Positions 1 to 6,030 are shown, numbered from the stretch's first letter. The stretch is DNA of 64,000 bases from Candidatus Helarchaeota archaeon (GCA_019058315.1 JAHPZH010000001.1:213566-277565), one strand, 5' to 3'. Program-made: numbers and translations. The notes: generated by a model from the sequence alone, not told the origin.

Positions 1-120
1 AACCTCAATACAAACCAGCACCACCTGTCCAACCTCAATACAAACCAGCACCACCTGTCCAACCTCAATACAAACCAGCACCACCCATTCAACCTGAATA
101 CAAACCAGCGCCACAACTAA
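1..120 (+). repeat. 30-bp coding tandem repeat, about 4 units visible, encoding QPQYKPAPP(V/I)
   Basis: aacctcaatacaaaccagcaccacctgtcc is identical at 1-30 and 31-60, with diverged copies at 61-90 and 91-120. Confidence 0.95.
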
Positions 121-1802
121 CTCAACCCTCAGTACCACCGTCTCCCCCATTGACTCAACCCCCTCCTACAACACCCACCGCATATCCCTCATCTTACGAA
201 GCGGTTCCAAGTTATCCGGCAGCTGTTCCTGAAGAAATCTTCAGAAAAGTTGAACGCCCTCCTGAAGAGGATTGTTTGAGATTAAAAATTGAACTCCAAT
301 ATAATTTAGGTGGGAAAATACTTTTAAGTCCACGAAATTATGATTTTTTTGGTCTTGATCCATTTAAACCTGTTCCAATTCTTTTTGAAGATCCTACGAC
401 AGGAGCACAAGGATCTGCATACGCTGAAGTTGCTGAAGTACCAGATAATACTGTGCGGATGGAACCTGAAACTTACGAAACTGCAGATATACAATCATTA
501 GATGTCGTTCTTTTCTCATCAGCCCCAAGAGAACCCCCCATAGTAAAAGTAGATCATTTGAATTTAAAAGTAAAAATAACTGCTAAAGGAATTGGCTCCA
601 AAGTTGTAATAAGTAAGAGAAACAGCTTATCATTAGAGATAGAAGAGGGCGAGATTGTTACATTTGAAGATGAACTAATTGGTGCTTGGGGAGCAGGTTA
701 TGTGGTTGTAGATGAAAATTTATCTCATGATATTATTGAAATTGAAGATGAAATATTCGAAGCAACTGGGATTGGATCCCAGGAAGTAGTTGTTAGGCGA
801 AATGATAAAGCAGTCATTCCACTTCAGAATTTAGAATTAGGAATTAGTCCAATCTCTGGCGAAGATATGTGGAATACTATTACAATGGTTAGAAATAATC
901 AAGATAGAATGAAAGCTTGGTTAAGTCAATTCTTAATTTTTAAAGGATTAAAGCTAGGTTGGAGAGAAGCTAATGCAGCAATTAATATATTAAACACAGT
1001 GCCAGAGCTTAAAGGTGAAGTTATAGCAGCTCCAAAGATGACCTCCAGTTTGAATTTAAAAGCTGAAGGTTTAATTACTTTCAATGCTATATTAGTTTTA
1101 GATATCTCTGCTTCAATGTTAGCCCCTGATATGCCATGTATAAATGTCGCTCCAGCTATTGAAGGAATTAAAGCAGCAATGGATAATGAAATAGTCAGAA
1201 AATTTTTAGCTCAATTCCGTGAAGGAAGAAATATGGCAAGAAGATTAGGAGCCGCATTTGCTGCTCTTCTGTTTCTTGCGGAAAAAGTAGGAAGAGGATT
1301 TGGAGAGAAAGTTTCGGTTATAAGATTTGCTGATGGGGCTGAAGTTCTTGATTTTAACGGTCCATTTTTCGACTCTGCATCTGGCAAACATGGTATTTTG
1401 GAACAAGCTGCAATTGAAATCGTAGAAAAAATTGGTCGATATAAAGGTTTGGCTACAAACATGGGTGAAGCTATGTTAAAGGCAAGGGAAGTTCTAGACG
1501 TTTATGAATCAATAGAGAAAGATAAACCTTGTATGTTAGTCTTATTAACCGATGGGTATCCAACTGATGAACCAAAATTTGTTCAAGTAATTAACCAATT
1601 CTTCGTTGGAAATCCTAATGTAGTGACATATATTGTAGGCATTGGTAATACAAATGTTAAGTTAATGAACGATATAGCTGTACGTTGTGGCGGCGAATTC
1701 TTCCAACCAAAAGATATGGGTGAATTACTTGTTTGGTACTCAAAAAGAGCCAGAGATTTAGTGGTTAAATTAAAAGGTGGTCGTAAATACCTTAATATCT
1801 AA
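3..1802 (+). CDS. 5'-truncated Pro-rich protein with tandem CDC48-N-like (double-psi barrel) domains and a C-terminal vWA domain
   Basis: The frame is open from position 3 (PQYKPAPPVQ repeats), so the true start lies left of the window. vWA MIDAS elements: LVLDISASM, TNMGEAM, LVLLTDG. Two segments resemble CDC48_N (e.g. VVISKRNSLSLEIEEGEIVTF...IIEIEDEIFEATGIGSQEVVVRR). No Walker A motif in the visible part. Confidence 0.75.
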   Translation, partial: PQYKPAPPVQPQYKPAPPVQPQYKPAPPIQPEYKPAPQLTQPSVPPSPPLTQPPPTTPTAYPSSYEAVPSYPAAVPEEIFRKVERPPEEDCLRLKIELQYNLGGKILLSPRNYDFFGLDPFKPVPILFEDPTTGAQGSAYAEVAEVPDNTVRMEPETYETADIQSLDVVLFSSAPREPPIVKVDHLNLKVKITAKGIGSKVVISKRNSLSLEIEEGEIVTFEDELIGAWGAGYVVVDENLSHDIIEIEDEIFEATGIGSQEVVVRRNDKAVIPLQNLELGISPISGEDMWNTITMVRNNQDRMKAWLSQFLIFKGLKLGWREANAAINILNTVPELKGEVIAAPKMTSSLNLKAEGLITFNAILVLDISASMLAPDMPCINVAPAIEGIKAAMDNEIVRKFLAQFREGRNMARRLGAAFAALLFLAEKVGRGFGEKVSVIRFADGAEVLDFNGPFFDSASGKHGILEQAAIEIVEKIGRYKGLATNMGEAMLKAREVLDVYESIEKDKPCMLVLLTDGYPTDEPKFVQVINQFFVGNPNVVTYIVGIGNTNVKLMNDIAVRCGGEFFQPKDMGELLVWYSKRARDLVVKLKGGRKYLNI

Positions 1803-1874
1803 AATACTCTTATTTTTAATTTGATTAATTTCATTCAAAATCTTTTTTTATGATCTTTGTATTTGTAAATCTAT

Positions 1875-4476: not shown

Positions 4477-4506
4477 GAAATTTGAATAATATAGGAGTCA
4501 GATAAA

Positions 4507-6030
4507 GTGATAATCCTTGAAATGCTGAAAGAAAATACAACCGATATTCGAGAAATAAAATTTCTTGTAATTGATGGTCATAGTCATCTAGGAAAAGATA
4601 TAGATGGTCAACAAAATATGAATCCTTTAGCTCCTGGTGGTACTTTTGATTTCTATGCAAAAATAAATTCTAAATTAAAGAGTCTTGCTGGGGATAAAGA
4701 ACTTACCTACGAATTAAATTATGAGGGGCAAAATTACATTTTTAATTTTAAATTTGTACCCCACAATTTTACTTATTTAATATATGATAAAATTTCTGAA
4801 CTTTGTAAATGTGGTGGACATAAAGATCTAATTAATAAATTTATAAATAGTTGGCTTATCGATCAAGGTGTTGTGTTCCCTTTTCAAGATGTATTTAGAC
4901 AAAGAAAATCAGAGGCAGAATATAGAGCTTCTAATTTAAATATATCTCGAGTCACATCAAGTTTTCCAAATTCTCTTAGATTAATTGGTTATGCTAGAGT
5001 AACACCTTCTCAAAGAGAAATAGCTGTAAATGAAGTAAAATTTGCCATTGAAAAATTAAAGCTCAGAGGTCTAAAACTCCATCCAAGATCTGATGGATGG
5101 TTAGATAAAGTAACAGAACAATTTGTCATTGATGTTTTAACCGAAGCTGCAAGACATTCCGTTCCTGTTTTATTCGATACAAGAGGTAAAAAATCTATAT
5201 TGGATATTTATGAAGTAACAAAGAACACAAGAGCATTTTTACAAAAATCTAATCCTAATTTAGTGAAACATCTAAAGGTTATTATTGGGCACTGTGCTGC
5301 TGGAAACATTGGAGACGAAGAAGTTTATGCTGCTATTGCTGATGATAACACAATTGGAGAAATTTCGATGATGCATGGACTTGCGTGTAACCAATTTTAT
5401 ATTGGTTTTAAAAATTGGTATAATCAAACTTTTAAGAATAAAAGAGTTTGGTCTGAAAATTTAATATATGGAAGTGATTTTCCATATTTCTTTGAAAAAC
5501 ATGCGGCTGACAATATTTCTTTCCTAATTTCGAAAGATTTCTTTGATAAAGGGGGAAAATTAACAGATACTGCTAATATATTAGGTATAAACATGATAAG
5601 ATTGTTACCTGAATATTCTCTTCCCCATAAACAAGAACATAATATAAAACCTCAATCAGCTTACATTCAAAATGATCAAAATACCCCATCAACTGATATT
5701 ATTGCTGAAGCTATCGCAGCTCTTATAGAATATAAAGTTATTAATCCCATCATGCTTAATTATATGTTTAATCACGATTTTTATAACTTTAATGAAGAAA
5801 TTCTAATTGATTGTGTTTCGGTAAAAAACCCAAATATCCAGAGTAAAATATTAGCAATGGATATTTTTAATAATACTAAAATTATGAAAATTTTTAATAA
5901 AGATGATGAATTTAAACCGCTTGGTGGTTATAAATTCTTCTCACCAAAAGATAGGCTTTTTTTACATTCAAATATTATTTTAAATAACCCAATTCACACC
6001 TTTAATCACTTTAAAATGCCATATACGTGA
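4507..6030 (+). CDS. Metal-dependent amidohydrolase (Amidohydro_2-like TIM barrel) with C-terminal extension
   Basis: IDGHSHLG (HxH), GLKLHP, IIGHC, YGSDFPY; AGGAG RBS upstream. Confidence 0.85.
   Translation: MIILEMLKENTTDIREIKFLVIDGHSHLGKDIDGQQNMNPLAPGGTFDFYAKINSKLKSLAGDKELTYELNYEGQNYIFNFKFVPHNFTYLIYDKISELCKCGGHKDLINKFINSWLIDQGVVFPFQDVFRQRKSEAEYRASNLNISRVTSSFPNSLRLIGYARVTPSQREIAVNEVKFAIEKLKLRGLKLHPRSDGWLDKVTEQFVIDVLTEAARHSVPVLFDTRGKKSILDIYEVTKNTRAFLQKSNPNLVKHLKVIIGHCAAGNIGDEEVYAAIADDNTIGEISMMHGLACNQFYIGFKNWYNQTFKNKRVWSENLIYGSDFPYFFEKHAADNISFLISKDFFDKGGKLTDTANILGINMIRLLPEYSLPHKQEHNIKPQSAYIQNDQNTPSTDIIAEAIAALIEYKVINPIMLNYMFNHDFYNFNEEILIDCVSVKNPNIQSKILAMDIFNNTKIMKIFNKDDEFKPLGGYKFFSPKDRLFLHSNIILNNPIHTFNHFKMPYT

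Follow-up and report, generated by a model that had tools for sequence, protein, structure and literature searches.

The first four genes of the 64,000-nucleotide stretch of Candidatus Helarchaeota archaeon DNA analyzed here (the window; GCA_019058315.1 JAHPZH010000001.1:213566-277565) constitute one conserved functional module, which has been kept and passed on as a unit in Lokiarchaeia, Helarchaeales among them, as well as in Thor-type and Heimdall/Hod-type Asgard archaea and in Thermoplasmatota. Its invariant core is a ligase, an Amidohydro_2 enzyme and a Cdc48N-vWA protein. Reversible modification of proteins or peptides is the best reading of this module given its synteny and co-distribution, the ubiquitin-fold proteins added to it in Thermoplasmatota, a vWA-ligase fusion and bacterial GCS2/Cdc48-N operons; we give this reading slightly less than an even chance, its mechanism being one that we infer. 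The conservation of the genes, their co-distribution, the fusion, the folds and the catalytic residues, whether intact or absent, are matters of direct observation.

Organization of the Locus and the vWA Protein

Four + strand ORFs occupy window positions 3-1802, 1875-2960, 2974-4476 and 4507-6030, with intergenic gaps of 72, 13 and 30 bp, as had been described in an earlier reading of the sequence alone (the sequence-only reading). Its domain calls also hold, namely a vWA protein with Cdc48-N-like barrels (marginally), a degenerate FGase-like protein, a GCS2 ligase and a metal hydrolase. The window start truncates the vWA gene, leaving the C-terminal 599 codons (1-1802, + strand); the true start lies 760 nt upstream (L004:14240), and a further barrel domain (copy 1) is encoded there, at the start of the gene. 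The same gene contains a 30-bp tandem repeat encoding a Pro-rich unit (PQYKPAPPVQ), and a scaffold gap of 100 N falls inside this repeat, immediately ahead of window position 1. The vWA domain (1065-1784, + strand) was identified by Pfam VWA (32.3 bits, cut-off 23.8) and by alignment, and its MIDAS is complete (DxSxS, T, D), all five positions being invariant among 15 aligned orthologues.

Two barrel copies lie within the window. Copy 2 (258-527, + strand), a Cdc48-N-like double-psi barrel, was delimited by two alignments (A7 and A8) and a profile match to the p97/TER94 N-domain, and copy 3 (543-884, + strand), delimited by the barrel profile, is the sole copy retained across all lineages, Thermoplasmatota included. 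The barrel-repeat profile matches the p97/TER94 N-domain at a best E of 9.2e-5, dozens of p97 entries at E 0.01-0.06, and also NSF-N and FwdD, while the Pfam CDC48_N model gives no match to the window protein. The profile of the archaeal protein does match bacterial barrels that Pfam scores as CDC48_N (55-60 bits). On these profile comparisons the barrels appear marginally Cdc48-N-like. An ESM Atlas feature search with the N-terminal region of the protein gave weak leads only (0.76), to CDC48_N and CDC48_2 clusters.

A RING-finger gene (6101-6550, - strand), an Arf-like GTPase gene and an SSB gene also lie in the window; these have no counterpart beside the module in 20 related loci and were set aside as chance neighbours. 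Glutathione and ergothioneine genes were not found within ~10 kb of the module, in agreement with the sequence-only reading.

The Ligase and the Hydrolase

The third gene (2974-4476, + strand) encodes a divergent ATP-dependent carboxylate-amine ligase of the GCS2/YbdK type, assigned from Pfam GCS2 and motifs. It matches Pfam GCS2 (PF04107) at 25.3 bits (cut-off 21) over only 31 residues, and falls far under the cut-offs of the NCBIfam YbdK models. The GhExE motif, a Mg/ATP signature (PMC2588565), is intact at residues 25-29 (window 3046-3060), and G25, E27, E29, H178, H180, E300 and R302 show little or no variation across 23 sequences and align to YbdK. A ligase profile matched the YbdK-type structures 1r8g and 1tt4 (E 7e-11), and against all PDB sequences at E<=1 it recovered YbdK-type chains and GshAB only, PafA and Dop being absent. 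The family is small and separate; a search of 1.84 billion representatives yields 95 clusters at E<=1e-30. The ligase of Thor-type and other Asgard classes bears 650-900 aa of Ig-like repeats, and in some relatives it is embedded within proteins of 2,200-3,800 aa. The Ig-like C-terminal extension of the long ligases was considered as a homologue of the Ig-like domain of ORF2; the match was weak (28% probability) and we do not claim homology.

The fourth gene (4507-6030, + strand, GTG start) encodes an Amidohydro_2 TIM-barrel metalloenzyme, as judged from its model and alignment. The barrel spans residues 20-372 and is followed by a family-specific C-terminal alpha/beta domain (residues 380-507). 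H25, H27, K190, H192, H262 and D324 are invariant, and the HxH, H, H, D metal ligands are intact. Pfam Amidohydro_2 (PF04909, cut-off 26.4) scores the window protein at 17.9 bits and orthologues at 63.9, 38.6 and 32.9 bits, and the model superimposes on the Amidohydro_2 structures 3cjp, 3irs, 4dlf and LigW with VIA Z of 19-21; the hydrolase profile found no match among PDB sequences. The solved Amidohydro_2 structures nearest to it are decarboxylases, hydratases, lactonases and uncharacterised proteins rather than amide hydrolases. Amide removal by this enzyme, and with it the "eraser" role that it had been assigned from sequence, is therefore chemically doubtful.

ORF2, a Putative Non-catalytic Partner

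ORF2 (1875-2960, + strand) was characterized through its predicted structure and alignment. The AlphaFold model (pLDDT 85.8) comprises an Ig/macroglobulin-like sandwich (residues 9-93, VIA Z 11.7), a long Glu/Lys-rich beta-hairpin (residues 94-169) and an FGase-like alpha/beta domain (residues 175-361, window 2397-2957). This C-terminal domain aligns with the FGase-family structures 2odf (Z 10.2, 166 aligned residues, rmsd 3.8) and 2q7s (Z 8.7), with PghP (Foldseek TM 0.44-0.46 by target) and with an atlas FGase cluster (TM 0.57 by target), the atlas clusters carrying FGase and Gamma_PGA_hydro. ORF2 has no Pfam match, and no His, Glu or Asp is invariant across 18 orthologues, for which reason the label "degenerate FGase-like" stands. 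The likeness to N-formylglutamate amidohydrolase and PghP (PF05013, PF05908) is accordingly one of fold only, not of membership, with conserved metal or catalytic residues lacking in ORF2 and an Ig-like domain preceding its FGase-like domain; by sequence the domain is a pseudoenzyme. An ESM Atlas feature search with ORF2 returned its own Asgard cluster only (0.79).

The C-terminal domain is homologous to stand-alone proteins of ~220 aa in other Asgard classes (hhalign 79%, E 1.5e-5; HMM E 1e-7). Either ORF2 or this homologue always lies directly upstream of the ligase, with Ig-like domains on one protein or the other. Complex prediction for ORF2 and the ligase gave a median score of 0.44 (runs 0.44, 0.65 and 0.01; best control 0.00). 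Of 80 solved complexes 58 reached the mark, and of 110 mismatched pairs 2 did so; only 7 of those solved complexes, but both mismatches, reached it at a score of <=0.60. At least 87% of contacts agree between the runs, and partner pLDDT is at least 81. The fixed position before the ligase and this weak prediction point to a non-catalytic ligase partner rather than to the "reader" that the dead FGase fold had been proposed to be. Fusion of ORF2 to the ligase in the 1,240-1,250-aa and 700-740-aa ligase forms was also considered and rejected, the hhalign comparisons with P0147, P0178 and the Thermoplasmatota ligase alignment being empty.

Conservation in Asgard Archaea

Conservation of the neighbourhood across Asgard genomes had been set beforehand as a test of the sequence-only reading, to be counted against it if the genes were not syntenic elsewhere. 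The ORF2-ligase-hydrolase order proved identical in 20/20 loci from 20 sampled genomes of the class, so that on this point the sequence-only reading is clearly not refuted. In Helarchaeales the vWA gene adjoins this set with the gene order unchanged; in Lokiarchaeales-type genomes it is found on the same contig at a distance of 3-43 kb. Among 301 Asgard genomes (one sample), the ligase, hydrolase and vWA protein were detected in 170, 171 and 171, respectively, with the same ten families positive for all three (e.g., 62/62/61 of 68 genomes in f4 and 62/65/65 of 76 in f10) and none of the three detected in the other 20 families (e.g., 0/28, 0/19). Absences and duplications are shared as well: all three are absent from genus g11, and f11 and f22 are the two families that have duplicates of ligase and hydrolase alike, the vWA protein giving three matches there.

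Elsewhere among the Asgard classes, the genes for the hydrolase and the vWA protein adjoin each other in all five f10/f29 genomes and in 4/5 f11/f22 loci, the fifth (L047) having one ORF between them, and the pair sits beside the ligase or 7-10 kb away. As the most constant adjacent gene pair outside Lokiarchaeia, they invite comparison with the vWA partners that serve chelatases, the Rubisco activase CbbQO and NorQD. The MIDAS-vWA protein could thus be a metal-dependent co-chaperone or activase for the Amidohydro_2 enzyme, with the ligase modifying or loading that enzyme instead of placing a mark on many targets. We consider such an assembly or activation device improbable: the loci read contain no MoxR-type AAA+ gene alongside the pair, the vWA gene is distant from the hydrolase gene in Lokiarchaeales-type genomes (10-43 kb), and the fusion observed, described below, joins the vWA domain to the ligase and not to the hydrolase.

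In Thor-type loci, oligopeptide ABC-transporter ATPase genes occur just upstream of the module. DUF92, Band7/NfeD and Rce1 genes beside it in the same loci were set aside as housekeeping neighbours.

Fusions and Relatives Beyond Asgard Archaea

The ligase-hydrolase-vWA trio recurs, rearranged, in Thermoplasmatota, whose clusters also include two ubiquitin-fold proteins (PF00240, 31.5 bits, above cut-off). The ubiquitin-fold domains of these proteins are N-terminal and not free C-terminal tags, and the C-terminal domain of the same proteins is also found ahead of the ligase domain (hhalign 87%, E 3.7e-6). In a metagenomic protein of 962 aa (P0152), the same vWA family (E 1.6e-45) is fused to the same ligase family. 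Distantly related bacterial operons, for example in Verrucomicrobiota (loci L060-L064), combine GCS2 with CDC48_N (55-60 bits), CDC48_N with a transglutaminase core and CDC48_N with vWA, alongside GATase_4 and a protein of the gamma-glutamyl cyclotransferase family (GGACT); the ligase, the transglutaminase-like peptidase and the vWA protein thus all carry Cdc48-N.

Some of these relatives bring to mind a system for conflict or defence, in which proteins of the invader or the host would be modified upon infection. P0152 sits in an island with Mom, TGT-like, QueC, QueF, TIR and SLATT genes, and on a Helarchaeota contig a paralogous ligase-hydrolase-vWA set adjoins a BrxL-like ATPase. For the window's own family such a role is very unlikely: it is single-copy and almost always present in its carrier families, it is well conserved (40-55% sequence identity across the class), it is syntenic in Lokiarchaeales-type genomes with UPP synthase and HMG-CoA synthase, which we regard as housekeeping neighbours and not as parts of the module, and PADLOC returned zero matches for every module component.

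Comparison With Known Systems

The module ligase shares its GS-type fold family with YbdK/GCS2 (PF04107; E. coli YbdK 1r8g, Salmonella 1tt4), and the GhExE motif, the His cluster and the E..R pair align. Only short motif blocks do so, however (25 bits), and the module ligase is ~130 aa longer than YbdK or carries the 650-900-aa Ig-like repeats, and always has the hydrolase and the vWA protein as companions. The hydrolase has the TIM barrel and the HxH, H, H, D ligands in common with Amidohydro_2 enzymes (PF04909: ACMSD, LigW, IDCase, LigJ, LigI, COG3618 lactonases), from which it differs by a family-specific loop (MNPLAPG.GTFDF), an inserted hairpin and the ~130-aa C-terminal alpha/beta domain.

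Pupylation in Actinobacteria (PafA, Dop, Pup, Mpa-proteasome) likewise combines, within one conserved cluster, a ligase of the GS/GCS fold and an enzyme for removal, and PafA has been proposed to descend from a GCS2 precursor (PMC2588565). Nevertheless, the module has no detectable similarity to PafA or Dop, its second enzyme is a TIM-barrel Amidohydro_2 protein and not a ligase paralogue, its vWA/Cdc48-N adaptor has no counterpart in pupylation, and no Pup-like ORF, proteasome or Mpa linkage was found at the module among ORFs of at least 80 aa. The bacterial GCS2-Cdc48N-transglutaminase-vWA-GGACT operons resemble it in that a single operon unites a GCS2-type ligase, a Cdc48-N-barrel vWA protein and at least one amide-cleaving enzyme. 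Their ligases are only distantly related to that of the module (E 1e-12 to 1e-15, library-wide search), they number two or three per operon, a transglutaminase-like peptidase, GATase_4 and GGACT replace Amidohydro_2, and there is no FGase-like protein. GCS2-like ligases associated with thiol peptidases or Aig2/GGACT have been predicted to make peptides (PMC2588565). We found no description of the archaeal module in the literature, in a search that did not include the survey of amidoligase neighbourhoods (Iyer et al., 2009, Mol Biosyst).

Two analogies, which imply no homology, may be helpful, one for the helper protein and one for the vWA protein. Eukaryotic glutamate-cysteine ligase has a modifier subunit, GCLM, in which a dead enzyme fold acts as a ligase partner. 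The MIDAS of Rea1/midasin binds the ubiquitin-like domains of Rsa4 and Ytm1, docking on a protein carboxylate, and it is the Thermoplasmatota version of the module that has ubiquitin folds.

Proposed Mechanism and Alternatives

All functional evidence for the module is contextual, and its substrate class, chemistry and binding partners are what we infer from that context. In the proposed mechanism the ligase would activate a carboxylate with ATP, most likely the gamma-carboxylate of glutamate by analogy with characterised GS/GCS-fold ligases, and would couple it to an amine of a protein or peptide. ORF2, with its dead FGase fold, may act as a non-catalytic partner for the ligase. The vWA protein would dock the target or product through the carboxylate-binding metal site of the MIDAS and the protein-binding Cdc48-N-like barrels, and the Amidohydro_2 enzyme, encoded by a gene that stays linked to that of the vWA protein, would remove or further process the mark.

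The module could alternatively serve a small-molecule pathway, which we consider a serious contender and yet the less probable reading. The ligase would then make a free gamma-glutamyl or other amide (a thiol or amine conjugate, or a short peptide) that the Amidohydro_2 enzyme decarboxylates, cyclises or hydrolyses, with the vWA protein and ORF2 merely scaffolding or regulating the enzymes. Among solved structures, those closest to the ligase are YbdK-type carboxylate-amine ligases, for which the single reported activity acts on small molecules, and the Amidohydro_2 neighbours use small aromatic acids, lactones and similar compounds. Pairs of a GS-fold ligase and a hydrolase, such as PuuA/PuuD, run known gamma-glutamylation routes for amines, and the transporter ATPase genes upstream of the module in Thor-type loci fit this pathway too; they would suit free peptides as well as proteins. 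On the other hand, the module has no other conserved partner among biosynthetic or catabolic enzymes, glutathione and ergothioneine genes are not found nearby, and the domains that constantly go with it are ones that bind proteins (MIDAS-vWA, Cdc48-N barrels, Ig-like repeats, ubiquitin folds), to the extent of a vWA-ligase fusion. The case for a macromolecular over a purely metabolic role is strengthened by that fusion, by the ubiquitin folds of Thermoplasmatota and by the bacterial Cdc48-N GCS2 operons.

A more specific form of the modification reading, which we think less likely than not and about as probable as the small-molecule pathway, would place the module of Asgard archaea and Thermoplasmatota next to ubiquitin-type conjugation and pupylation as a third form of reversible amide tagging, in which the ligase adds glutamate or another carboxylate-bearing group to target proteins, the MIDAS and Cdc48-N domains read or present it and the Amidohydro_2 enzyme removes it. 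The writer, eraser, reader and substrate set proposed from sequence survives as a conserved functional set, whereas its tag and target did not emerge from the ~45 loci read. Neither did any link to an AAA ATPase or proteasome, to which the proteins had been suggested to be routed, and no small tag-like ORF or proteasome/Mpa gene occurs among ORFs of at least 80 aa at the window's module and 32 Asgard loci. The term "glutamylation" was based solely on the usual activity of the ligase fold family.

Asgard archaea serve as a source of evidence on how eukaryotic protein regulation arose. If the modification reading is true, this vertically inherited gene set with its protein-binding domains would supply a candidate post-translational modification system for these close archaeal relatives of eukaryotes, and the poorly understood YbdK/GCS2 ligases would be placed in a defined biological context. 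If instead the small-molecule reading is true, the module points to a metabolite common to these archaea. With three core genes and one helper the module is compact, and homologues are named from the cultured Promethearchaeum syntrophicum and Lokiarchaeum ossiferum, so that the hypothesis can be tested directly by reconstitution and proteomics.

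Locus Organization

Four co-oriented genes open the window, encoding a vWA protein (ORF1, 3-1802), ORF2 (1875-2960), a GCS2/YbdK-type ligase (2974-4476) and an Amidohydro_2 hydrolase (4507-6030), all on the plus strand, and ORF calls on the window confirm the gaps of 72, 13 and 30 bp noted in the sequence-only reading. In this 5.8-Mb, 12-contig Asgard genome, whose closest protein matches bear Helarchaeota or Helarchaeales names, the vWA gene is truncated by the window edge, limiting that reading to its last 599 codons; as joined across a 100-N gap, its genomic start lies 760 nt upstream (L004:14240, in a locus that includes the upstream sequence). 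The upstream part holds one extra barrel domain followed by a 30-bp tandem repeat encoding PQYKPAPPVQ (L004:14766-15114, window -234 to 114), within which the scaffold gap (L004:14901-15000) ends exactly at window position 1. In vWA orthologues this position is taken by Pro-rich linkers whose lengths differ widely.

Eukaryote-like signaling genes lie directly downstream of the module in the window; none of them is kept beside it in the related genomes compared. They encode a RING-finger protein (6101-6550, minus strand; zf-RING_2, 29.9 bits), an Arf/Rag-like small GTPase (6757-7311, plus strand) and a Ras-family GTPase (8536-9084, minus strand). The stop of the Arf/Rag-like gene overlaps by 4 bp the start of a 151-aa ORF with no family match (7308-7763, plus strand).

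A Conserved Module in Asgard Archaea

The four genes very probably form a conserved functional module, as indicated by their synteny, their co-distribution, rearranged versions and clusters outside Asgard, and a vWA-ligase fusion; synteny elsewhere is clear, and the earlier proposal is not refuted on this count. Within the class, the order ORF2-ligase-hydrolase is identical in all 20 loci compared, one per genome. The vWA gene adjoins this trio in four Helarchaeales loci and lies approximately 3.5 kb away in one further locus. In five Lokiarchaeales-type genomes its orthologue is single-copy and approximately 55% identical, and shares a contig with the trio in four (10-43 kb apart) and lies on another contig in the fifth. 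In only one of these loci, from a Lokiarchaeales-type genome (L027:9562-11506), is the trio interrupted: two extra ORFs, one of 205 aa and, on the opposite strand, one of 431 aa, separate the ligase gene from that of the hydrolase.

In one sample of 301 Asgard genomes the ligase, hydrolase and vWA protein were detected in 170, 171 and 171 genomes, respectively. The counts per family hardly differ among the three: in the same order, they occur in 62, 62 and 61 of 68 genomes of family f4, 62, 65 and 65 of 76 in f10, and 16, 15 and 15 of 21 in f25, with 5/5/5 in f11, 6/6/6 in f22 and 11/10/11 in f30, and all three score zero in the remaining 20 families of the sample (for example 0/28, 0/19, and 0/11). 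All three are also absent from genus g11, including from a one-contig genome. The ligase and hydrolase are both duplicated in f11 and f22, where the vWA protein gives three matches.

Other Asgard classes, with source names including Thorarchaeota, Hodarchaeales, and Heimdallarchaeota, carry a rearranged module. Here the ligase occupies the first 470 residues of a protein of 1,090-1,390 aa that also carries Ig-like repeats, the vWA protein is short, with one barrel and the vWA domain, and a protein of approximately 220 aa before the ligase is homologous to the ORF2 C-domain (hhalign 79%, E 1.5e-5; E 1e-7 against Helarchaeales ORF2 by plain HMM). The hydrolase and vWA genes are mutually adjacent in 5/5 f10/f29 genomes and 4/5 f11/f22 loci, a single ORF separating them in locus L047, and the pair lies next to the ligase or 7-10 kb off.

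A Helarchaeota contig (L055:1-12217) carries a second, divergent set of ligase (P0199; E 5e-50 against the family profile among locus ORFs, 2.2e-42 library-wide), hydrolase (E 2e-54) and vWA genes, among which are interspersed a BrxL-like ATPase and several ORFs that match no family. A search with the ligase found no paralogue of this type in the window's own genome. No description of the four-gene set was found in the literature searched, outside which lies the main survey of amidoligase gene neighborhoods.

Properties of the Components

The ligase matches Pfam GCS2 at 25.3 bits, and YbdK-type structures were the sole PDB matches of a 23-sequence profile (E 7e-11), with an alignment covering the GhExE, His-cluster and E..R motifs, which make up this superfamily's Mg/ATP site (PMC2588565). 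It is closer to YbdK than to PafA, the pupylation ligase. When 1.84 billion representatives were searched exhaustively by HMM, only 95 clusters scored at E<=1e-30, and the ligase is a small, distinct family. Its domain also lies near the C-terminus of giant proteins of 2,200-3,800 aa (P0135, P0140, P0141, P0145, P0151, P0154, and P0170), of which P0141 also carries helix-hairpin-helix motifs.

The hydrolase was previously described as a metal amidohydrolase. The fold and metal site hold up, with HxH, K, H, H, and D invariant among orthologues, Amidohydro_2 structures matched at Z 19-21 by the model (pLDDT 84.7) and one orthologue above the Pfam cut-off (63.9 bits). Amide hydrolysis, however, is an assumption, since the closest solved relatives are lactonases, decarboxylases, hydratases, and uncharacterised proteins.

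ORF2 matched none of the family models searched, and its predicted structure (pLDDT 85.8) has three parts. The first is modeled as an Ig/macroglobulin-like sandwich (Z 11.7 against alpha-2-macroglobulin MG domains), and Ig-like domains are found either on ORF2 or else on the ligase. The second, predicted as a long Glu/Lys-rich beta-hairpin (residues 94-169), is confined to Helarchaeales, a helical insert of approximately 250 residues taking its place in Lokiarchaeales-type orthologues. The hairpin has alternating Glu/Val/Lys runs of the EVEVEKEV type (YEVEYEVEVE in the closest orthologue) and might act as a spacer, bind a MIDAS site or serve as a substrate for the ligase. The third is a modeled C-terminal alpha/beta domain best matching the FGase family (2odf, Z 10.2; 2q7s, Z 8.7) and PghP. 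As the orthologue alignment holds no invariant His, Glu or Asp, ORF2 is by sequence a pseudoenzyme. It always immediately precedes the ligase; 13 bp separate the two in the window, and in relatives the ORFs overlap. Complex prediction weakly backs this pairing, with a median of 0.44 (runs 0.44, 0.65, and 0.01; best control 0.00) against a mark reached by 58/80 solved complexes and 2/110 mismatched pairs, but at values <=0.60 by just 7/80 solved complexes and yet both mismatches; contact agreement between the runs was at least 87% and partner pLDDT at least 81. With modest confidence, we prefer for ORF2 the role of a non-catalytic ligase partner over that of the "reader" initially suggested.

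The vWA protein matches Pfam VWA at 32.3 bits, and none of its five MIDAS positions (DxSxS, T, D) varies among 15 orthologues. N-terminal to this domain is an 85-90-residue unit, present in three copies in Lokiarchaeia and one elsewhere. A profile of 31 units matches the TER94/p97 N-domain (E 9.2e-5, with dozens more p97 entries at 0.01-0.06), NSF-N and FwdD, all of them double-psi barrels, as well as barrels of bacterial proteins that Pfam labels CDC48_N at 55-60 bits. These profile matches lend the Cdc48-N-like assignment made earlier marginal support at the sequence level.

Relatives Outside Asgard

On Thermoplasmatota contigs, hydrolase, 700-740-aa ligase and vWA orthologues (hhalign E 2e-44 and 7e-32) share one cluster. 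Between hydrolase and ligase lies a pair of paralogous proteins that begin with a ubiquitin fold (PF00240, 31.5 bits; weaker Rad60-SLD matches in others), whose C-terminal domain recurs directly N-terminal to the ligase domain. Distant bacterial operons (L061:578-14672, L060:898-7200, and L064:3545-10718), one protein of which carries a Verrucomicrobiota name, encode up to three GCS2 ligases along with GATase_4 and GGACT, and Cdc48-N is fused in them to a ligase, to a transglutaminase-like peptidase (transglutaminase core) and to a vWA protein. The other enzymes around these ligases belong to families that target gamma-glutamyl amide and isopeptide bonds. No description of this GCS2/Cdc48-N/transglutaminase/vWA/GGACT set was found in the literature searched.

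Possible Targets of the Module

A small-molecule pathway is the less likely reading. Four points count against a protein or peptide as the target: the hydrolase family mostly processes small molecules, YbdK is a closer relative of the ligase than PafA is, Thor-type loci have oligopeptide-transporter ATPase genes upstream, and in the compared loci the module is not consistently accompanied by any gene for a tag, a target, an AAA ATPase or the proteasome. We find no support for the suggested routing to AAA ATPases or the proteasome. Our tentative preference is for a reversible protein or peptide modification system. This is favored by the constant partners of the two enzymes, namely a MIDAS-vWA domain, Cdc48-N barrels and Ig-like repeats with no further metabolic enzymes, by the Thermoplasmatota ubiquitin-fold proteins and their recurring C-domain, by the embedding of the ligase domain in very large proteins of some relatives, and by the gamma-glutamyl amide/isopeptide-type enzyme families around the bacterial ligases. 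It also agrees with earlier proposals that GCS2-like ligases encoded next to thiol peptidases or to Aig2/GGACT proteins make peptides (PMC2588565) and that inactive peptidase folds bind peptide tags (PMC3495828).

In P0152, a 962-aa protein whose gene closes a metagenomic contig of 100 kb (L059:8001-10889), the vWA family (E 1.6e-45 across barrel, linker, and vWA) is fused to the ligase. Its neighbors (L059:600-7880) encode Mom, three N6/N4 methyltransferases, TGT-like, QueC, QueF, TIR (ThsB-like), and SLATT proteins, a DNA-modification/defense-type setting which suggests that some relatives of the module act in conflict systems.
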